Part shown: positions 428 to 18,110 of the stretch, piece after piece | Position numbering within the stretch: position 1 is the stretch's first letter | How the letters are laid out: each line of letters starts with the position of its first letter | Origin: Alphaproteobacteria bacterium | GTDB lineage: Bacteria; Pseudomonadota; Alphaproteobacteria; Rhizobiales; JAJRRF01 | Direction of reading: 5' to 3' | Assembly: GCA_024279735.1 (NCBI GenBank) | Contig: JAJRRF010000087.1 | Span: 1-26,519 of the forward strand | Length of the DNA: 26,519 nt | Made by a program: the position numbers and the translations under genes | Notes under the pieces: generated by a model | What the model was told of the DNA's origin: nothing | Seen by the model: only the letters and a program-made list of their open reading frames with translations | Database searches by the model: none

Positions 428-2008
428 ATGCCAGAAATTCAAAAAAATCTCGATGTTTTCAAGTCTGTTATCATTAAAGAAAATGAGATTGGCCTACTGA
501 TGGAAAATGGTCAGTTTAAAAAAATATTGCAGCCTGGAAAATACACGTTCTGGAGTTTGAGGGCAGAACGCAAGGTTCATATTTTAGATACATTTTCAAC
601 AGAACTCGCAGAGTTTTGGGCTGTGATCTTGCTCAAAAAGAGGCCTGCTGAGGCTGCGAAATTGTTTGAGGTGGTTGAGACAGGGGCAGACCAAATTGCC
701 TTGCTCTATCAGGATAACAAACCAGTCATGTTACTCAAGCCCTGGCAAAAAAAATATTTCTGGAAGATGCGCCACACGATTGATGTGGAATATATTTCCA
801 TCCAGACAGGTAAGGTTCTGTCTGAAGAGTACCGTACTGTCATGGAACAAATAAGACCTGAAAGCATGGTTGTCTCCCAGACAATAGGAGCTTCCCATAT
901 TGGATTGATGTATATTGATGACCAGTTTGACAGGGTGCTGTATCCTGGTGTCTATAGCTTTTGGAAGAATGAGGGGAAAATCTCATTTGAGCGTTATGAC
1001 TGTCTTAACAGAGCCAGCAATGGATTGCTTGAAAAACAGGCCAAGGAATTATTGGCTCATGCCCCAGACGAAGCCGACAAGCTGCTAGAAGTTGTCACTA
1101 CAAAAGAAAGCCAAGTGGCTGTTGTCTCTTGGGATGAGAAGCCCTTTTTAGTATTGAAACCGTGGCAGACCAAATATTATTTCAAAAAGCTTTCTAATGT
1201 CCATGTTGACTATATTACCATTGCCACAGGTCAAGAAGTGCCCAAGGAGTATCGCGCTGTTTTGGAAAAGCTCGATACAGGCCAGTTGGTACAGTCTTTG
1301 ACAATAGCGCATTTCCACACTGGTCTGATGTTTGTCGATGGCAAACTGGTGCGGGAACTGAAGCCCGGGGCCTATAGCTTTTGGCAAAATGAGGGGCAGG
1401 TTGCCTTCCAGATCATTGATTTGCGGCCACAGCAGCTTGAGGTTACAGCCCAGGAAATTTTGACCAAGGACAAGATTTCCCTGCGTGTCACCCTGTCTGC
1501 CTTTATGACGGTGCGGGATGCCTGCAAGACAGTAGAATCCTCTGTTGACCATAACGAGCATCTTTACCGCCTGGTTCAGTTTGCTGTGCGTGAGGCTGTG
1601 GGCAACCGTAGCCTGGATGAGGTCTTGGGCAGCCGCGAAAAGGTTGACAGCCAGATCGTGAATCATGTCCGTGAACATATGGGTGATATTGGTATCAGCT
1701 TGGAGGGGCTGGGCATTAAGGACATTATCCTACCTGGTGAGATGCGTGACATGCTCAACAAGGTGGTGATGGCCGAAAAGACTGCCCAGGCCAATTTGAT
1801 CCGCCGCCGCGAGGAAACAGCAGCAACTCGGTCCTTGCTCAATACTGCCAAGTTGATGGACGGCAGCCCGACCCTGATGCGGCTGAAGGAGCTGGAAACT
1901 CTGGAAAAGCTGACCGAAAAGGTTGGCCGCATCGACCTTCACGCAGGCGACAAGGGCGGCCTGGACGCGCTACTCTCTGGGTTGCTGAAAAGTGAGAAGA
2001 GTGAGTAG
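428..2008 (+). CDS. SPFH/band-7 (stomatin/flotillin-like) domain protein with triplicated N-terminal repeat region and C-terminal coiled coil. It has no predicted TM segment.
   Basis: The C-terminal about 180 aa (LRVTLSAFMTVRD...LGIKDIILPGEMRDMLNKVVMAEKTAQANLIRRREETAA...) matches the SPFH core. The N-terminal beta-hairpin motif PGxYxFW recurs at residues about 36, 173 and 313. Confidence 0.85.
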   Translation: MPEIQKNLDVFKSVIIKENEIGLLMENGQFKKILQPGKYTFWSLRAERKVHILDTFSTELAEFWAVILLKKRPAEAAKLFEVVETGADQIALLYQDNKPVMLLKPWQKKYFWKMRHTIDVEYISIQTGKVLSEEYRTVMEQIRPESMVVSQTIGASHIGLMYIDDQFDRVLYPGVYSFWKNEGKISFERYDCLNRASNGLLEKQAKELLAHAPDEADKLLEVVTTKESQVAVVSWDEKPFLVLKPWQTKYYFKKLSNVHVDYITIATGQEVPKEYRAVLEKLDTGQLVQSLTIAHFHTGLMFVDGKLVRELKPGAYSFWQNEGQVAFQIIDLRPQQLEVTAQEILTKDKISLRVTLSAFMTVRDACKTVESSVDHNEHLYRLVQFAVREAVGNRSLDEVLGSREKVDSQIVNHVREHMGDIGISLEGLGIKDIILPGEMRDMLNKVVMAEKTAQANLIRRREETAATRSLLNTAKLMDGSPTLMRLKELETLEKLTEKVGRIDLHAGDKGGLDALLSGLLKSEKSE

Positions 2009-2221: not shown

Positions 2222-3151
2222 ATGCAAACAATACTCTCAATCAAGAACCTGACCAAGACTTATGGTGAGGACTTTACTGCCCTGAACGATGTATCCCTTG
2301 AGATCAGGAAGGGCGAAATCTTTGCCCTGCTTGGGCCAAACGGGGCAGGTAAGACCACCTTAATCAGCACGATTTGCGGTATTGTCAATCCAAGTGGCGG
2401 CACTGTTACGGTGGATGGCCATGACATTATCACAAACTACCGCGCTGCCCGCGCCATGATTGGTCTTGTGCCGCAAGAACTCACGACTGACAGTTTTGAA
2501 ACGGTCTGGGATACGGTCAGTTTTACACGCGGCCTGTTTGGCAAAAAGCGTGATAACGCGCTGGTCAGCAAGATTTTAAAAGACCTCTCGCTGTATGACA
2601 AGAAAGACAACAAGATCATGACGCTGTCTGGCGGCATGAAACGCCGCGTCCTGATTGCCAAGGCCCTGTCGCATGAACCAAGGATATTATTCCTGGATGA
2701 GCCGACAGCCGGGGTGGATGTCGAGCTGCGCAAGGACATGTGGGCGGTGGTGCGCGGCTTGCAGCAAAGCGGGGTGACCATCATCCTGACCACCCACTAT
2801 ATTGAGGAAGCCGAGGAAATGGCTGACCGAGTGGGCATTATCAGCAAGGGCGAGATTATCCTGGTGGAGGACAAGGCCACCCTGATGGCCAAGCTGGGCA
2901 AGAAGCATTTGACGCTGGAACTGTGTGAAAAGCTGGAGACTGTTCCAGACACCCTGAAAGGCTATGACCTGTCCCTGTCAGACGACGGTTTTTCGCTGGT
3001 TTACCAATATGATAGCACTGGCAAGACGACTGGTATTACTGGCCTGCTCGACAAGCTAAAGGGCGAAAACATCGCCTTCCGCGACCTCAGCACAGGCCAA
3101 CGTTCCCTGGAAGATATTTTTGTGGGGCTGGTGAAGGGGGGAGAGGGATGA
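2222..3151 (+). CDS. yadG: ABC transporter ATP-binding protein, ABC-2 exporter type (YadG-like)
   Basis: Walker [12 protein letters not shown], signature LSGGMKRRV, Walker [13 protein letters not shown] and H-loop TTHY are all present. The overall layout matches E. coli YadG. Confidence 0.9.
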
Positions 3152-3435
3152 CAGGCCAGAAAACGGCTGAACTCATCAAGGTTGTGGATGAAATGACTGT
3201 TTTGCTGAAACAGCATAGTGAAGAAAACTGGGTAAGCTGGATGGGGCAGGTCTCTGCCCGCCTTAAAAATTCGGACTATTCAGGAATAGAAAAGCTGCTG
3301 GGGGCGTATGGCGGCATGGGGTCTTTTAATGATTTCGTGTTGATTGCGAAGCCCTCAGCCAATGAACAGCTCAATGTCTTGAGGCATAAGGCTTGGCAAC
3401 TGGCGACTGATATAAAGCGGGATTATACTGGTTGA
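3148..3435 (+). CDS. small hypothetical protein (95 aa) inserted between the ABC ATPase and permease genes
   Basis: ATGA start/stop overlap with yadG. A strong SD GGGGGAGAGGG lies 5-8 nt upstream. No recognisable domain. Confidence 0.55.
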
Positions 3436-3455
3436 CATAAATAAAGGCCTTTCTT

Positions 3456-3548
3456 GTCGGTCGACTGCTCTGTAGTTGACTGGAACGTTTTGACACTCAA
3501 GGTTGTTGGGCAGTAACGTTCCAGTTAAGGACAGAGCTCTTAACCGAC
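3456..3548. repeat. 93-bp compound inverted repeat (stems 6+7+10 bp: GTCGGT/ACCGAC, GCTCTGT/ACAGAGC, CTGGAACGTT/AACGTTCCAG) in the yadG-yadH intergenic region
   Basis: Complementarity read directly. Internal TTGAC motifs occur at about 3476 and 3490. Confidence 0.6.
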
Positions 3549-3794
3549 ATGTGGCGACAGGGATTTGGAGAAGCAGAATAATGCGAGGCTATGTCAATAT
3601 TCTCCAAAATTCACTATAACCCCCCATACTTTCCATCGTCATCATCGGGCTTGTCCCGCTGTTCCATGTCTTAAGTTTTGGTCTTGATACAAAGGCTGGT
3701 TATTGTGCTTTACAGTTTAAAAGATGGATAGTTGGAACAAGTCCAACTATGATGTGTGATGAGAAAATTAGGGGCAGGACGGAAAAGGCAAAAT

Positions 3795-4580
3795 ATGAAA
3801 AAATTCAACATGCAGTCTCTTAATATCAGAGGTGTAAAGGCGATTTACCTGTTTGAAATGGCGCGGCTGCGGCGTACCCTGTTCCAGTCGATTGCCTCGC
3901 CTGTGATCTCGACGCTGCTTTATTTTGTGGTGTTTGGCTCGGCGATTGGCTCGCGCATTGAACAGGTGGACGGCATTACCTACGCCCAGTTTATTGTGCC
4001 TGGCCTGCTGATGCTCTCGCTGCTGACCCACAGCACCTCAAATGCCTCGTTCGGGATCTATTTCCCAAAGTTTACAGGGACAATCTATGAGGTTTTGTCC
4101 GCGCCGATTTCTTATTTGGAAATTGTGATGGGATATGTTGGGGCAGCGGCCAGCAAGTCGATTATATTGGGCGTGATTATCCTGGTCACGTCTGCCTTTT
4201 TTGTTGACCTGCAAATAGCGCACCCGTTCTGGATGGTGTTCTTTCTGCTGATGACCTCCATCACCTTTGCCCTGCTTGGATTTATCATTGGTATCTGGGC
4301 GGACAATTTTGAGAAACTCCAGGTGATACCGTTATTGGTGATTACCCCGCTGACCTTTCTTGGTGGCACCTTCTATTCGCTCGACATGCTACCCCCGTTC
4401 TGGCAGACGGTTTCCCTGTTCAATCCTGTGGTCTACCTGATATCGGGTTTTCGCTGGAGTTTTTATGAGATGGCAGATGTCAATATTTCAGTTTCCGTCT
4501 TCATGATCTTCTTTTTCCTGTTTTCCTGCCTGGGCGTGGTATGGTGGATTTTCAGGACAGGCTATAATATCAAGCAGTAG
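3795..4580 (+). CDS. yadH: ABC-2 family transporter permease (YadH-like). Alignment to E. coli YadH suggests the true start is the ATG at 3810 ([10 protein letters not shown]...).
   Basis: Six predicted TM helices. The conserved motifs [21 protein letters not shown] and [11 protein letters not shown] match the YadH family. Confidence 0.85.
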
Positions 4581-4588
4581 GAGGAAAA

Positions 4589-5173
4589 ATGGCTGATTAT
4601 CCCCAATATAGCCTTTGTATTGAAGGTGTGGGATTGCCTTTGGAATGTGTGGAAGTCTTTCTGAAGGCAGAAAATGGGAAAGAAATAACAAGAAATGATA
4701 TGAGGGGGTTTCCTGAGGAGCTTGTGGGTTTTATGGATATCCTAAATGCCAAACTGTTAGACCCAAACTATGTAACCAATAAATTTTTTACAACATCTGT
4801 TTGGGATGGGGAAAAAACAATTGATCAGGGTTTTCATTATCGTTTGATGGGGCGATTTCGGGATATGAATATCGTGATTTTGCAAGCGTTTTTAGCTTGG
4901 GTTTGTCAGTTCAGTGTTAAGAATTCAATGTTGGGAACTATTTTTCAGGAAGGTAGTCTCTCTCCCACTTTAATAATGTCTATAGAGAAAAGGGTTGTCG
5001 AAATATCCTTTGTAGAGCATGAATATCCCCCTAAATTGGAAAAGAGTTGTTGTAATCCTGAGTTCTTGGCATCTGTGATTGATTGGGAGAAAGGGTGGGG
5101 TGAAGTGGAGGTGGGACTGACTGGGAAATCCCTATATTTGAATTACCTTTCTTGGGATGAGATAGTAAAATAA
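4589..5173 (+). CDS. hypothetical protein (194 aa), compositionally AT-richer than neighbours
   Basis: Strong SD AGGAGG 7 nt upstream, 9 nt after the yadH stop. No recognisable family. Confidence 0.6.
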   Translation: MADYPQYSLCIEGVGLPLECVEVFLKAENGKEITRNDMRGFPEELVGFMDILNAKLLDPNYVTNKFFTTSVWDGEKTIDQGFHYRLMGRFRDMNIVILQAFLAWVCQFSVKNSMLGTIFQEGSLSPTLIMSIEKRVVEISFVEHEYPPKLEKSCCNPEFLASVIDWEKGWGEVEVGLTGKSLYLNYLSWDEIVK

Positions 5174-5186
5174 GGGGGAAACAAAA

Positions 5187-5612
5187 ATGTCTGATTGTTG
5201 TGGCGGCGGCAATGCGCAGAAAACTGAACACAATGCACCAACCAAGCGCGCTTGTCCCTCTTGCGGCAAGGATGGCCTTACAGTTCCCTTTGCCACTATG
5301 CTTCATCACCTGAAAACGCCGTGGGCAAACCTGGCCAAGGATCAGCCATATTATTTTTGTGATGATCTGGAGTGTGAAACAGTCTATTTTGGCAGTGACG
5401 GTACTGCGATTGCCAAAGAGGAACTGCGCACGAAAATGCTGGTCAAGGGCGATGCGGATGGCCTCGCCTGTTTCTGTTATGGGGTGAGCGCGGAAGATGC
5501 GGCCGACCCTGCCGTCAAGGCCTTCATTATGGCACAGACCAAGGCCAAGAACTGTGCCTGTGACCGCCGCAACCCGTCAGGCCGCTGTTGCCTGAAATAT
5601 TTCCCGAAGTAG
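5187..5612 (+). CDS. cysteine-rich (14 Cys in 141 aa) putative metal-binding protein with an N-terminal CxxC...CxxxxC zinc-ribbon-like motif and a C-terminal CxC...CxC...CC cluster
   Basis: SD GGGGGA 8 nt upstream. Cys spacing read from the translation. There is no signal peptide. Confidence 0.6.
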   Translation: MSDCCGGGNAQKTEHNAPTKRACPSCGKDGLTVPFATMLHHLKTPWANLAKDQPYYFCDDLECETVYFGSDGTAIAKEELRTKMLVKGDADGLACFCYGVSAEDAADPAVKAFIMAQTKAKNCACDRRNPSGRCCLKYFPK

Positions 5613-5619
5613 CTGTAAT

Positions 5620-5630
5620 CCCCCCCCCCC
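5620..5630. repeat. homopolymeric C11 tract in the convergent intergenic region
   Basis: Read directly from the sequence (aatcCCCCCCCCCCCatttt). Confidence 0.9.
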
Positions 5631-5669: not shown

Positions 5670-8600
5670 CTAGCTTTTAGGTAGCGGTTGCTGCGGCTGT
5701 TGGGGTGGCACTGGTTCTGGTTTTTTGTAGCCAAAGGGCTTGCCGTCATCACGCAGCACCACATAGATGGCAGGGATAATCAGCACAGTCAGCAAGGTCG
5801 AGGAGATCAGGCCAAACAGCAGTGAGATGGCCAGCCCCTGGAAAATGGGGTCTGTCAGGATGACCACAGCCCCGATCATGGCCGCGACAGCAGTGAGCAG
5901 GATAGGCTTGAAGCGCACCGCGCCAGCCTCTACAACGGTATCACGCAGCGACTTGTCATCGCTTTGGTTATGGCGGATAAAGTCCACCAACAGGATAGAG
6001 TTCCGTACGATAATACCCGCCAACGCAATAAAGCCAATCATGGAGGTGGCGGAGAACGGCGCGCCAAACAACCAGTGTCCATACATGATCCCGATCAGGG
6101 TCAGCGGGACGGGAGTCAGGATCACAAGCGGCAGCTTGAAAGAGCCAAACTGGACAACCACCAGAAAATAAATCCCAAGCAGGGCGACCATGAAGGCCGC
6201 GCCCATATCGCGGAAGGTAACATAGGTCACTTCCCATTCGCCGTCCCAGAGCAGGACAGACTTGCTCTCGTCACTGGGTTGGCCATAATAGCTGATTTCA
6301 GGTTTGGGAAGGTTTTTCCAGTCATGGGCATCAATCGCCTTGGCGACAGCCATCATCCCGTAAATAGGGGCTTCAAACTGTCCCGCCAGTTCAGCCATCA
6401 ACATTTCTGCGTTATGGCCATTATGGCGGAAGATGGGGTAGGAGCTGGTTTCTTTATGCAGTTTGACAATATCACCAAGCTCTACAACTGTTCTTTTTTG
6501 TCCCGGACTGCCTGAAGGTATCTGAGCCATCCGCCGGGAGGGGACAGGGGTTGTCAGGGTACGGCCAGAGACTGAAAGGTCTTTATTGGACATCTTTACA
6601 GCTATCTCTACAGGATGGCGACCTTCGCCTTTATGGGAATAGCCAATACGCACGCCATGAAGATAGGTCTGAACAGTATTGAAGACATCAGCCTCTGAAA
6701 CCTGGTGAAATTCCAGGTTATTCTGGTCAATGGTGAAGCGCAGGCGTTGGGCAGGCGTGCCAAAACTGTCATCCGTATCGACAATAAAGGGGATCTTCTC
6801 AAAGATGCCGCGCAATTCATTGGTGACTGCGCGTCTTGTCTTTGCATCCGGGCCATAAATTTCAGCCAGCAGGGTGGCCATGACGGGTGGCCCGGGGGGA
6901 ACCTCGACAACCTTGAGGGAGCCGCCCTTGGCAATATCCATGCCCTTCAGCAGTTTGCGGGCTTCCAGGGCAATTTGGTGGCTGGTGCGGCTGCGGTGAT
7001 GCTTGGCCGTCAGGTTGATTTTCAGGTCGCCCATTTCCGGCTGGTTACGCAGGTAATAATGGCGCACCAGGCCGTTAAAGTTAAACGGTGCGGCTGTGCC
7101 AGCATAGGACTGGATAGAGAGCAGTTCTGGGATGTTTTTCAGCCTGTCAGCAGCCATGCTCAGGACGCGGTCGGTCTCTTCCATCGTTGAGCCTTCAGGT
7201 AGGTCAAGCACAACCTGGAACTCTGACTTGTTGTCAAACGGCAGCAGTTTGACGGTGACCATATTGAAATAGAACAGGGTCAGTGAGGCAAGGGTGGCTG
7301 CACCCGTCAATAATAGGAAAAGCCAGCTGAAAAAACGATATTTCAGGATAGGGCGGGCGACAGCAGCATAGGCTCTTCCGAGTATGCCGCCATCCTTTTT
7401 CTCAACATGATGCGCACCTTCTTTTGGCCTGGCAAAACGGATCATCAGCCAAGGGGTCAGGATCATGGCGACAAAAAAGGAAAAAATCATGGCAGCTGAG
7501 GCATTGGCAGGGATTGGGGACATATACGGCCCCATCAGGCCAGAGACAAACAGCATAGGCAACAGGGCAGTCACAACAGTCAGGGTGGCAATCACCGTTG
7601 GGTTGCCAACTTCAGCAACTGCTTCAATGGCGGCCTGCTTGTGCGAGCGGCCATCATCCATGCCCCAGTGTCGGGCAATATTTTCAATCACAACAATGGC
7701 ATCGTCCACCAATATCCCGATAGAGAAGATCAGCGCAAACAGCGACACTCTGTTAATGGTAAAGCCCATCATCCAGGAGGCGAACATGGTCAGCAGGATG
7801 GTGGTGGGTATCACAACCAAAACAACGCCGCCCTCGCGCCAGCCAATGACAAAGGCCACCAGGATAACAATAGATATAGTGGCAAGGCCAAGATGGAACA
7901 GTAGCTCATTGGCCTTTTCATTCGCAGTCTCGCCATAGTTACGGGTGACAACGACCTCCACCTCATCAGGGATCAGGCGGCCACGCAATAATTCAGTCTG
8001 TTTTAGGATTTTTTGGCCGATCTCAACCGCGTTTGCCCCAGCCCGTTTGGCAATGGCAATGGAAACAGCTGGCCTTTTCATAAATGTAGTGTTGTCTGTC
8101 TTGTCATGCCCTTCGGTGGCCGTATGGACTGCTTTATGCTGGCTCGCAGTGCCGCTATAGTGCCAGACATAGTTTTTGGAAGGCTCTGCGCCAACAACAA
8201 CATTGGCGACATCCCTGACATAAACAGGCTGTCCCCCACGTGTGGTGAGTAGCAAGAGGCCAATATCCTTGATGCCGCTCAGGGTCTGTCCTGCCAAAAC
8301 AGGGAGGCTCTTATTGTTGCTCCTGATGCGTCCAGCAGTAAAGGAGCGGTTGGCAGCTTTCAGTTTGCCAACAAGCTGGTCGAGGGTCACGCCATAAAGG
8401 GAAAGCCGTTCTGGATCTGGTTCAATCCTGATCTGATCCTTGCGACCACCAACCATATAGGACAGGCCGACATCCGGAAGTTTGGCAATCTCGACCAAAA
8501 GGTCGTTGGCAATATTATAGAGCTGGTTATCTGACCAGCGTTTCGCGGCGTGTGGTTTTGGTGTTAGGGTCAGGGTGACAATGGCAACATCATCAATGCC

Positions 8601-9020
8601 GCGCCCAACAATGAGCGGTGCAGGGATGCCTGTGGGCAGGCGGTTCATGTTTGCGCGAATTTTTTCATGGACGCGGGCTATCGCATCATCGGCATTGGTG
8701 CCAACCAGGAAACGAGCGGTCACCAGGACGTGGTTGTCAACCGTGTTACTGTAGACATGCTCAATCTGGTCAATTGCCTTGATAATGGTTTCCAGAGGCT
8801 CTGTGACCAGCTTGACAGCATCAATCGCCTTCAGACCATCCGTATTGATATGGATGTCTACCAAAGGCACTGAAATCTGCGGTTCTTCTTCACGCGGCAG
8901 GCTTTGCAGGGCAATAAACCCAATGATCAGGGCGGCAAACATGAGTAGGGGGGTAAGTGGGGAGCTGATAAAGGCCTTGGTCAGGTTGCCAGACAGTCCC
9001 AGTTCTACTTTGTTATTCAT
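5670..9020 (-). CDS. efflux RND transporter permease subunit (AcrB/AcrD/AcrF family), 1116 aa with a Pro/Gln-rich C-terminal tail
   Basis: Twelve-TM RND architecture with large periplasmic loops. Typical N-terminus and conserved TM4 region (ILVDDAIVVIENI). Confidence 0.92.
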   Translation of the reverse strand: MNNKVELGLSGNLTKAFISSPLTPLLMFAALIIGFIALQSLPREEEPQISVPLVDIHINTDGLKAIDAVKLVTEPLETIIKAIDQIEHVYSNTVDNHVLVTARFLVGTNADDAIARVHEKIRANMNRLPTGIPAPLIVGRGIDDVAIVTLTLTPKPHAAKRWSDNQLYNIANDLLVEIAKLPDVGLSYMVGGRKDQIRIEPDPERLSLYGVTLDQLVGKLKAANRSFTAGRIRSNNKSLPVLAGQTLSGIKDIGLLLLTTRGGQPVYVRDVANVVVGAEPSKNYVWHYSGTASQHKAVHTATEGHDKTDNTTFMKRPAVSIAIAKRAGANAVEIGQKILKQTELLRGRLIPDEVEVVVTRNYGETANEKANELLFHLGLATISIVILVAFVIGWREGGVVLVVIPTTILLTMFASWMMGFTINRVSLFALIFSIGILVDDAIVVIENIARHWGMDDGRSHKQAAIEAVAEVGNPTVIATLTVVTALLPMLFVSGLMGPYMSPIPANASAAMIFSFFVAMILTPWLMIRFARPKEGAHHVEKKDGGILGRAYAAVARPILKYRFFSWLFLLLTGAATLASLTLFYFNMVTVKLLPFDNKSEFQVVLDLPEGSTMEETDRVLSMAADRLKNIPELLSIQSYAGTAAPFNFNGLVRHYYLRNQPEMGDLKINLTAKHHRSRTSHQIALEARKLLKGMDIAKGGSLKVVEVPPGPPVMATLLAEIYGPDAKTRRAVTNELRGIFEKIPFIVDTDDSFGTPAQRLRFTIDQNNLEFHQVSEADVFNTVQTYLHGVRIGYSHKGEGRHPVEIAVKMSNKDLSVSGRTLTTPVPSRRMAQIPSGSPGQKRTVVELGDIVKLHKETSSYPIFRHNGHNAEMLMAELAGQFEAPIYGMMAVAKAIDAHDWKNLPKPEISYYGQPSDESKSVLLWDGEWEVTYVTFRDMGAAFMVALLGIYFLVVVQFGSFKLPLVILTPVPLTLIGIMYGHWLFGAPFSATSMIGFIALAGIIVRNSILLVDFIRHNQSDDKSLRDTVVEAGAVRFKPILLTAVAAMIGAVVILTDPIFQGLAISLLFGLISSTLLTVLIIPAIYVVLRDDGKPFGYKKPEPVPPQQPQQPLPKS

Positions 9021-9397: not shown

Positions 9398-10483
9398 TCA
9401 GGTAGCAGCTTTGGGCATAAGAATATGGTCGCCCTCCTTAAGGCCTGAAAGAACCTCAACCTCATCCTTGTTGCTATTCTTTTCAGTTATGACTGCACTG
9501 CCAAGCTGGATAATAATGTCCATTGGCTTGTGGCCAGAGCGTTCCAGCCTGACATAATCCAGGCCATAACGTTTAAATGTATAGCTTTTGGGGATGACTA
9601 TTGTTTTGCGTCTTTCAGCGGTAATACGAACCAATGTGCGCTCACCGACAAAATAGTTTCCTGGCTGGTCAATCTTGACATCTGCTATCAGGCGGCCATC
9701 CTTCAGCTCAGGATAAATCTGGATAATGGTTCCCGTACCAACTGATTTTTCATCAGGGTCAAGACCGCGCGCACCAACAACCACCTTGTCACCAAGCTTG
9801 ATGAAACGGGCATGGCGTTCTGGCAATTGCAGCCTGAGGATATAGTTGTTGGCAGCTATGCTGACCAGGCTTTCACCAGGCATCACAACACTGCCCTTGG
9901 TGACAGAAACCTTTAGGACACGTCCGTCTGAAGGTGCTAGGACATCACCCTGCTTCATCTGTTCAACAAGTACAGCACGTTCAGCCTGTGCTGATTTCAG
10001 GTTGTCCAGGTTGACGTTATAGGTCGTCTTGAGTTCGTCAAGCCGTGAAGTGGTGATGACACCGCTTCTCTTGAGCTTGCGTCCCCGTCCCAAATCTTTC
10101 TTGGATTTCTGCATCAAGGCTTTTCTGGCTCGGATCTTGGCATCCAAAGAGGCCATTTTCAGCCTGATTTTTTTGTCAACAATACGAGCAACCAGGTCGC
10201 CTCGCTTGACCCGTGAGCCCTCATCAACATTCAGGCTGACAAGTGTGCCTGAAATTCTGGCGCGTGCCTCATTCTTGTCAGAGCTGCGAGCCGTGGCAAA
10301 GACGGCCTTGCTGTCAGTGATGGTCTGCCTGACAACAGGAAGTCCCGTAAGCTGGATGGATTCCTGAACCTGTTCTGTCTTGACGGGCGCTGCAACGGAA
10401 GTGTTGGCGGAAAAGGCAGCGAGTCCTGTAAAGACTGCGAGAGAGCTTTTTTGTAGCCAATGTCCTGAACGGTTTACCATCAT
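9398..10483 (-). CDS. efflux RND transporter periplasmic adaptor (HlyD/membrane fusion protein family) with signal peptide
   Basis: N-terminal signal/anchor sequence. Lipoyl, beta-barrel and coiled-coil hairpin layout typical of membrane fusion proteins. Lies upstream of the RND gene on the same strand. Confidence 0.9.
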   Translation of the reverse strand: MMVNRSGHWLQKSSLAVFTGLAAFSANTSVAAPVKTEQVQESIQLTGLPVVRQTITDSKAVFATARSSDKNEARARISGTLVSLNVDEGSRVKRGDLVARIVDKKIRLKMASLDAKIRARKALMQKSKKDLGRGRKLKRSGVITTSRLDELKTTYNVNLDNLKSAQAERAVLVEQMKQGDVLAPSDGRVLKVSVTKGSVVMPGESLVSIAANNYILRLQLPERHARFIKLGDKVVVGARGLDPDEKSVGTGTIIQIYPELKDGRLIADVKIDQPGNYFVGERTLVRITAERRKTIVIPKSYTFKRYGLDYVRLERSGHKPMDIIIQLGSAVITEKNSNKDEVEVLSGLKEGDHILMPKAAT

Positions 10484-17279: not shown

Positions 17280-18110
17280 ATGGAAATAGCATCAAGAAAA
17301 CCAAAAGTATTTATAGCTTCTTCATTAGAGGGAAGAAGTATTGTTGATGCTATTCACGTTAACATAGAACATGAATGTGAAGTCACTCCTTGGTATCATA
17401 GCTTTACACCTTCTAGTAATACCTTAGATGATTTGATTATATCATCTAGTGCTTCTGATTTTGCTTTGTTTGTGTTTCAACCCGATGATCTCACACTTAT
17501 AAGGAGTAAAGCAGAGCCAATGGTTAGAGATAATGTTCTATTTGAAATGGGAATATTTATCGGGACTCTTGGTCGGGAAAGGGTGTTTCTTCTGAAGCCG
17601 TCTCATGAAACATTATGCTTGCCAACTGACTTAGCTGGTTTGATTTATTTGGGATATGAAGCAAATAGAACTGATCAAAATTTAGAAGCAGCCACTAATC
17701 CCGCCTGCTCTAAAATAAAGAAATGTATAAAAGAAAGAGGGGCTTTGAATTTTGGAAATTTTTCAAAAACCAACAAGCAAAGTGTCAATTTTCCTGAATA
17801 TGAACTTGATGAAATAGATTATATTTTCTTGCAGAAATGTTCTGCTAGCCATACTTCCCATCCTGAAGGGTTAACCTTTGAAAGTCTTTCTTTTTCTATT
17901 AATAATAGGAAGAAAGAAGACGCAATAAGAAAATCAGCTCTTAAACTTCACAGAATGAAATGTATTGATCTTAGTATAGAAGTAGAAGACTTCGATATAA
18001 ATGATCCGCCAAGACAAGAGTATTACTATACCATCACAGAAATAGGGATTGATCTATTGTTAAAACACGATTTTTCAAAAAAGACTTTTGACGATGAGAT
18101 TCCATTCTGA
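17280..18110 (+). CDS. TIR-like domain protein (COG4271/PF10137-type 'predicted nucleotide-binding protein containing TIR-like domain') fused to a C-terminal winged-helix-like domain. It is AT-rich and likely horizontally acquired.
   Basis: Motifs KVFIASS, ALFVFQPDD, RDNVLFEMGIFIGTLGRERVFLLKP and PTDLAGLIYL. The first 120 nt are about 33% GC. Confidence 0.8.
   Translation: MEIASRKPKVFIASSLEGRSIVDAIHVNIEHECEVTPWYHSFTPSSNTLDDLIISSSASDFALFVFQPDDLTLIRSKAEPMVRDNVLFEMGIFIGTLGRERVFLLKPSHETLCLPTDLAGLIYLGYEANRTDQNLEAATNPACSKIKKCIKERGALNFGNFSKTNKQSVNFPEYELDEIDYIFLQKCSASHTSHPEGLTFESLSFSINNRKKEDAIRKSALKLHRMKCIDLSIEVEDFDINDPPRQEYYYTITEIGIDLLLKHDFSKKTFDDEIPF

Follow-up and report, generated by a model that had tools for sequence, protein, structure and literature searches.

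The N-terminal domain of CopZ from Archaeoglobus fulgidus (PDB 2HU9) reportedly binds Zn and a [2Fe-2S] cluster, the roles of the individual ligands being said to have been worked out by Sazinsky et al. in 2007. The Fe-S domain of this protein mediates the reduction of Cu(II) (reviewed in PMC7558416). Stand-alone proteins of this type are catalogued in NCBIfam as NF047645 (CopZ_Nterm_CC), with the description 'putative iron-sulfur cluster-binding metallochaperone', and a sister family, NF045877, carries a cysteine-selenocysteine (Cys-Sec) pair at the corresponding motif (PMC13188914). Another described system, YadGH of E. coli, is an efflux pump of the ATP-binding cassette (ABC) type 2 and has been reported to export macrolides (PMC13462070). 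Here we analyse a 26,519-nucleotide stretch of DNA from an alphaproteobacterium of the order Rhizobiales (contig JAJRRF010000087.1, assembly GCA_024279735.1; hereafter the window), in which the yadH-type permease gene of a yadGH-like operon is followed by two small genes, orf194 (194 aa) and copZN (141 aa). A sequence-only reading had presented these as a pair of exporter accessories with a possible function in metal handling or in peptide maturation and export. Our analysis leads us, with reasonable confidence, to see two unrelated things behind yadH: a native member of the CopZ_Nterm_CC family (copZN) and an inserted, lineage-specific orphan gene (orf194).

Both open reading frames are present on the forward strand as had been described, orf194 at 4589–5173 and copZN at 5187–5612, and each opens with ATG. 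By profile matching, copZN is a member of an already catalogued family: residues 1–140 cover the entire NF047645 model (positions 1–138 of 138) with 141.9 bits against a cut-off of 100, Pfam PF18423 (zf_CopZ) is matched with 55.5 bits against a cut-off of 28.4 (E = 5.5e-15), and the sole solved relative is 2HU9 (E = 2.8e-11, 32% identity over residues 22–136). The earlier statement that neither protein matches a family is therefore right for the 194-aa protein and wrong for the 141-aa one, which has a match in each of the three resources. Clear membership of a known family was one of the outcomes by which the sequence-only reading had said it would be refuted; for the 141-aa protein this outcome has come about, although the family is not a housekeeping one. 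In the alignment with 2HU9, C23/C26/C58/C63 of copZN fall on C4/C7/C38/C43 (CxxC...C....C) and C95/C97/C125/C134/C135 fall on C75/C77/C109/C118/C119 (CxC...C...CC), and all nine aligned cysteine positions of 2HU9 are kept. We take the first four of the 2HU9 residues to be the Zn site and the remaining five to be the [2Fe-2S] site.

Family membership and this alignment agree with the zinc-ribbon-like N-terminus, the [2Fe-2S]-type C-terminal cluster and the metallochaperone-like character that had been read from the sequence. The motifs named at the time (MSDCC, CPSCG, YYFCDDLEC, CFCYG, NCACDRR and GRCCL) are all found, and copZN has no signal peptide, as stated; the cysteines number 12, however, not 14. 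The proposed BFD-like spacing did not hold up: Fer2_BFD was not matched at E <= 1, and Pfam gave only zf_CopZ and a sub-threshold DUF5795. We also rejected copZN as a CopZ/Atx1-type chaperone proper, since PF00403 (the HMA domain) gave no match at E <= 1 and the chain stops after 141 residues. With 36 homologues as input, AlphaFold2 (AF2) produced a model with a predicted local distance difference test score (pLDDT) of 76, and the only significant Foldseek match of this model in the PDB is again 2HU9 (probability 1.0, E = 1.9e-4, TM score 0.40, root-mean-square deviation 12 Å, with the cofactor-binding loops modelled metal-free). The fold check suggested earlier gives 2HU9 as the top match of the 141-aa protein, on a loose superposition; for the 194-aa protein the AF2 model was uninformative.

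As judged by composition and substitution pattern, copZN is native to its genome and selectively maintained, because its GC content is 54.0% (57.7% at third codon positions, GC3), its host-codon score is the highest among the genes tested and the ratio of nonsynonymous to synonymous substitution rates (dN/dS) relative to the homologue at another family locus, L009, is 0.11, the mark of purifying selection.

For the wider family, a protein search gave 263 homologues of ~140 aa, and a search at one genome per species gave 324 loci, the best 80 of which were retrieved; neighbours within 4 kb were clustered over 85 family loci and the cluster representatives identified with Pfam. Across an alignment of 36 homologues, eleven cysteines are invariant (C4, C5, C23, C58, C63, C95, C97, C123, C125, C134 and C135), as is His41, while position 26 is Cys in two of the 36 and mostly Asn. 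The N-terminal tail that bears Cys4-Cys5 varies in length and is modelled with low confidence. Genes of the mer type (encoding MerR, MerT, MerP, MerC or MerE) lie within 4 kb at 20 of the 85 loci, and the recurrent neighbours are MerR (15), MerT (8), MerP/HMA proteins (8), MerC (6), cation diffusion facilitators (CDF; 5), permeases of the resistance-nodulation-division (RND) type (5) and MerE (4). At four loci (L076, L078, L084 and L089) merR is accompanied by the series merT-merP-copZN-merA-merE, with the copZN homologue at about 10001–10438 of the locus; MerA reaches 1049 bits there and the copZN homologue 168.7 bits on NF047645. Directly behind merT-merP or merC is where the homologue stands at further mer-linked loci, which include L010, L011, L019, L012, L020 and L079. 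We found no publication on a link between the family and mer operons, on the stand-alone family, or on DUF6966, a domain encoded elsewhere in the operon.

We picture copZN as a small cytosolic protein that would hold Zn in a structural role together with a redox-active [2Fe-2S] cluster. With the invariant vicinal Cys4-Cys5 pair on its variable tail it might accept a thiophilic metal, Hg(II) or Cu, inside the cytoplasm, to be either handed on or reduced. This proposal draws on three things: the reduction of Cu(II) by the A. fulgidus domain, the Cys-Sec motif of the sister family and the mer-linked loci, where about a quarter of the family stands immediately after genes for the importers MerT/MerP or MerC and, in four cases, between merP and merA. 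Alternatively, copZN could be a small Fe-S protein for redox reactions or electron transfer, or a protein of thiol-disulfide chemistry, that takes no part in metal trafficking and has inherited the metallochaperone name from the A. fulgidus fusion. We regard this as a minor possibility that deserves to be kept in mind. It would account for the three quarters of family loci that are free of metal genes and for the housekeeping context in the window, the Cys-Sec pair of the sister family suggests a redox role, and the protein stands alone, without the Cu-binding HMA domain of a true CopZ. It accounts less readily for the repeated position of the homologues directly behind MerT, MerP or MerC, encoded on the same strand, and within merTP-X-merA-merE operons, or for the MerR regulators adjacent to them in 15 loci. 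MerA handles Hg(II) by means of vicinal cysteine pairs carried on flexible tails, a device that the pair in copZN resembles.

The neighbouring orf194 looks to lie on compositionally foreign DNA, inserted exactly between the stop codon of yadH and the ribosome-binding site of copZN. A 1.6-kb contig from a close relative, L008, carries the C-terminus of yadH (83% identical) and then, after 35 nt, copZN (63% identical), with no orf194 between them. In a blastn comparison, window positions 4422–4579 correspond to L008 1–158 and 5168–5612 to L008 177–620, placing the homology breakpoints at 4579/4580 and 5167/5168; a low-GC segment of 588 bp in the window (4580–5167, forward strand), nearly all of it orf194, has 18 bp of L008 in its place. 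The stop codon of orf194 (TAA, 5171–5173) falls in sequence common to the L008 intergenic region, and the stretch AAATAAGGG at the Shine-Dalgarno region of copZN is likewise shared with it. The GC content of orf194 is 38.8% (GC3 36.9%), its GC skew is +0.34 and its host-codon score is negative. A GC content of 42–48%, below that of the neighbours, had been claimed for both genes; orf194 is indeed atypical, at a lower value than claimed, whereas copZN, at 54.0%, is neighbour-like. Because of the foreign composition of the segment, insertion here is favoured over deletion in L008. No direct or inverted repeats flank 4580–5167. An integron cassette or other mobile element was considered for the insert and rejected, there being no attC-like site, terminal repeats or target-site duplication, and the spacers on the two sides of orf194 measuring only 8 and 13 nt.

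The product of orf194 is acidic (pI 4.7, net charge -10), contains a vicinal Cys pair at 153–154, and has no confident transmembrane segment and no signal peptide. Searches of 5.8 billion protein clusters and, exhaustively with phmmer, of 1.84 billion representatives found no match other than the protein itself. No Pfam family was matched even at E <= 10, NCBIfam, PHROGs and PADLOC gave no matches, the best match among PDB sequences had E = 1.6, and nothing was found in plasmids and phages by tblastn or in a scan of viral contigs. Neither the window nor the 170 fetched loci contain a paralogue, and the protein is free of internal repeats.

orf194 is probably translated, yielding a soluble acidic protein from a strong Shine-Dalgarno sequence of its own, AGGAGG at 4579–4584 on the forward strand, which overlaps the yadH stop codon and lies 4 nt upstream of the ATG. 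We treat it as a gene because of this consensus sequence, the length of the reading frame, its codon periodicity (chi-square p = 0.003) and the enrichment of G at codon position 1 (33%). That the 588-bp insert could instead be non-coding foreign DNA which happens to be open in one frame is unlikely. Such a view could appeal to the lack of homologues, and hence of conservation evidence, to the pLDDT of 33 of the single-sequence AF2 model, and to the atypical codon usage and moderate periodicity, which in the neighbouring genes reaches 1e-14 or lower. A poor single-sequence model is, however, to be expected of a singleton, and only one of 5000 composition-matched shuffles of the segment gave 190 or more codons in a row without a stop. 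The reading frame, moreover, fills the insert almost exactly and ends in ancestral intergenic sequence, and it is preceded by the consensus AGGAGG and shows the bias towards G at the first codon position. Our working view is that orf194 is a recently acquired passenger gene, which would be expressed by read-through from yadH.

The junctions are compact. From the yadH stop codon (TAG, 4578–4580) to the orf194 ATG (4589) the gap is 8 nt, and from the orf194 stop codon to the copZN ATG (5187) it is 13 nt; the second gap includes a Shine-Dalgarno-like GGGGGA at 5174–5179 on the forward strand, 7 nt upstream of the ATG. A scan of the window found no terminator-like site among yadH, orf194 and copZN. 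The short spacers and Shine-Dalgarno sequences that had been said to couple both genes to yadH are thus confirmed by measurement, and copZN is probably co-transcribed with yadH, with which the two gaps and the terminator-free junctions are compatible.

These features are also what could be expected if both proteins were dedicated YadGH accessories, serving metal handling or peptide maturation and export. The gaps are short, a Shine-Dalgarno sequence lies over the yadH stop codon, no terminator intervenes, and the yadH-copZN adjacency is found again in L008 despite ~17% amino-acid divergence of yadH. We nevertheless consider this explanation quite improbable. Homologues of yadH at 70–85% identity number in the thousands, and neither copZN nor orf194, nor a DUF6966 gene, was found at any of the 81 other yadH loci of that identity that we compared. 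Conversely, yadH is present at one of the 85 copZN loci, L008, and at none of the other 84. orf194 is confined to a single contig and missing from L008, and domains for peptide maturation are absent. In the locus with the closest yadH relative (L170, 85% identical), copZN is on a different contig, next to parDE. The gene 3′ of yadH is variable in general, 33 of 43 being singletons.

Most likely, then, the position of copZN behind yadH is specific to this clade, being shared with a close relative and with none of the other loci, and copZN is not an exporter subunit. On sequence grounds orf194 and copZN are unrelated and do not form a pair: copZN is native and conserved, and orf194 is a foreign singleton that is absent from the L008 arrangement. 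The case for the two as a functional pair of exporter accessories is a weak one. Several parts of the sequence-only reading have to be revised accordingly. Coupling to the exporter is retained as far as the short spacers and the recurrence of yadH-copZN adjacency in L008 go, and is given up as a general YadGH accessory function. The two genes are no longer to be treated as a pair, since orf194 is lacking in L008, and nothing indicates peptide maturation. As to the neighbourhood comparison that had been proposed, the pair does not travel with yadGH (0 of 81 yadH loci, 1 of 85 copZN loci), and an RND gene is near copZN at 5 of the 85 loci. In L170, yadH is followed by a gene for a membrane protein homologous to the product of the gene 3′ of copZN in L008. 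The two proteins (L008 634–1434 and L170 3614–4555) are multi-pass membrane proteins free of family matches, with 24% identity (E = 2e-12), and are not encoded at the corresponding position in the window.

That copZN would instead partner the convergently transcribed pump downstream, an RND permease with its membrane fusion protein (MFP), in delivering or sensing metal for heavy-metal efflux is highly improbable: the convergent copZN/RND order is kept in L009 (copZN 72–73% and the RND protein 95% identical in amino acids), RND genes occur within 4 kb at five of the 85 family loci and the permease obtains a partial CusA/CzcA score of 242 bits, but convergent genes are not co-transcribed, the score is below the cut-off of 701 with multidrug models scoring higher, an RND pump captures its substrate in the periplasm or membrane and copZN has no signal peptide, and a different gene lies downstream in L008.

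Several observations weigh against the view that copZN is a native metal-handling family member and orf194 an unrelated insertion. For copZN, the AF2 model superposes loosely on 2HU9, as the TM score of 0.40 indicates. At position 26, that of the second Zn cysteine, 34 of the 36 homologues have another residue, and the Zn site may vary across the family. Metal genes are missing from the surroundings of some 75% of family loci, and profile scans of the window found no mer gene and no MerR, HMA or P-type ATPase gene. In the searchable literature we found no measurement of metal or cluster binding for stand-alone members. For orf194, the direction of the event (insertion here or deletion in L008) is judged from composition, with no outgroup, the codon periodicity is weaker than that of the neighbours, and translation is a prediction. 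Finally, yadH and copZN are adjacent in two diverged genomes (synonymous divergence dS of yadH about 1.4), which could mean a real functional link.

The RND gene itself (5670–9020, reverse strand; Pfam ACR_tran, 5e-140) encodes a divergent permease of 1116 aa and is convergent to copZN. It stays under every NCBIfam subfamily cut-off (multidrug 381 versus 1250, CusA/CzcA 242 versus 701), and an assignment to the heavy-metal (CusA/CzcA) type was rejected on the latter score. Its upstream partner, the gene for the periplasmic adaptor (MFP), lies at 9398–10483 on the reverse strand (TIGR01730, 124 bits against a cut-off of 94.9). The RND-MFP pair does not have a gene for an outer-membrane factor beside it. 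The spacer between copZN and the RND gene measures 57 nt and contains a C11 homopolymer at 5620–5630; it forms no stable hairpin, and no terminator was found after copZN.

On the other side of the two small genes, the first gene of the exporter operon is a yadG-type ABC ATPase gene (2222–3151, forward strand; Pfam ABC_tran, 1.3e-36; 250 bits with the NCBIfam drrA subfamily, under its cut-off), and the yadH-type ABC-2 permease gene lies at 3795–4580 on the same strand (NCBIfam NF011648/PRK15066, 239.5 bits against a cut-off of 225; Pfam ABC2_membrane, 2.8e-35). The yadH reading frame is open from 3756, and homologues align from ~3810. At 75 of 77 other loci yadG and yadH lie next to each other; here they are split by a DUF6966 gene of 95 aa (3148–3435, forward strand; Pfam PF22294, 3.2e-16), which overlaps the yadG stop codon by 4 nt (ATGA), and by a 360-nt spacer. 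In L170 an EamA transporter gene takes the place of DUF6966 at this junction.

Just 3′ of the DUF6966 gene, the 360-nt spacer contains a long hairpin with 35-nt arms (3455–3549, forward strand). Its RNA fold has -54.1 kcal/mol (z = -6.0), and none of 200 shuffles was equally stable; no U-tract follows it, and no second copy was found in the window or the fetched loci. Further towards yadH, a consensus scan gave a candidate promoter with the -35- and -10-like hexamers TGGATA and TATGAT (3725–3753, forward strand). Enclosed by them, at 3728–3750, is a perfect 9-5-9 palindrome, ATAGTTGGA-ACAAG-TCCAACTAT, which occurs once in the window and lies ~45 nt upstream of the yadH start. We propose 3725–3753 as a candidate promoter and operator that might serve yadH-orf194-copZN.

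An Rfam scan of the entire window at gathering thresholds gave no hits. The other genes of the contig are housekeeping ones (the atp operon, rplS, leuC, panB, fabI and pdxH), and no metal-resistance genes were found elsewhere on it. Two further genes may be mentioned. A 526-aa SPFH/Band-7 protein (428–2008, forward strand) has two similar modules of ~140 aa N-terminal to its Band_7 domain; examples from the modules are KPWQKKYFWK...YISIQTGK and KPWQTKYYFK...YITIATGQ, and the module region is lower in GC. A TIR-domain protein (17280–18110, forward strand; Pfam CAP12-PCTIR_TIR; PADLOC TIR effector/PycTIR, 1e-34 to 1e-44) is encoded beside leuC by an inserted gene with 33.9% GC and the most atypical codon usage of the window. 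This gene resembles a defence-type gene standing alone on foreign DNA.

What the analysis offers is mostly clarification: the Cys-rich protein is already catalogued, its partner is a singleton insertion, and a new exporter system need not be invoked. The yadGH operon of this clade, which different insertions have broken and lengthened (in the window DUF6966 and orf194, in L170 EamA), provides a small case of single-gene operon remodelling. The lead of most use is the association of the family with mer operons, which offers a concrete hypothesis, open to testing, on a protein that is widespread (324 loci at one genome per species). Two further-reaching ideas are long shots: that the clade-specific yadH-(orf194)-copZN arrangement constitutes a new route for thiophilic metals, and that the family is an unrecognised cytoplasmic component of mer operons. 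Under the first, Hg, Cu or Cd would be caught on Cys4-Cys5 near the [2Fe-2S] cluster and the metal or metal-thiolate passed to YadGH, with orf194, which has its own Cys153-Cys154, as a newly recruited adaptor. Under the second, the CopZ_Nterm_CC protein would receive Hg(II) from MerT or MerC.

Compared with known systems, copZN shares the Zn-type and [2Fe-2S]-type cysteine positions of the A. fulgidus CopZ N-terminal domain. Unlike A. fulgidus CopZ, it is bacterial rather than archaeal and stands alone, without the C-terminal HMA/CxxC copper domain, and unlike 2HU9 it has an additional invariant MSDCC motif and an additional invariant Cys123. It is a typical NF047645 protein in matching the model over its full length above cut-off, in its size of ~140 aa and in the same eleven invariant cysteines. 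It departs from the family in keeping Cys at position 26 (2 of 36) and in following an ABC-2 permease rather than mer transporters, and its contig is of alphaproteobacterial type, whereas the best 80 of the 324 genome loci are mostly from Gamma- and Betaproteobacteria. With the sister family NF045877 (CopZ_Nterm_CU, the Csac_0668 family 2Fe-2S (seleno)protein) it has the domain and the N-terminal dyad motif in common; it differs in its score (60 bits against a cut-off of 190) and in carrying Cys-Cys, not Cys-Sec.

As for mercury resistance, family members between merP and merA or behind merC occupy the accessory slot of mer operons (the merC/merF position), and the vicinal Cys pair of copZN, on a variable tail of low model confidence, is reminiscent of the C-terminal vicinal Cys pair of MerA. 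However, MerC and MerF are membrane proteins to which copZN has no homology, no mer genes accompany it in the window, and any handling of Hg by it is a prediction. orf194 resembles other lineage-specific ORFans on foreign DNA in being homologue-free, low in GC3, atypical in codon usage and missing at the syntenic position in a relative, and is set apart from them by its insertion within an operon with near single-gene precision and without the hallmarks of a mobile element. The exporter, finally, is similar to E. coli YadGH in that its permease exceeds the cut-off of the YadH model (PRK15066) and is accompanied by an ABC ATPase, and differs from E. coli-type YadGH operons in being interrupted by DUF6966 and extended by orf194 and copZN.

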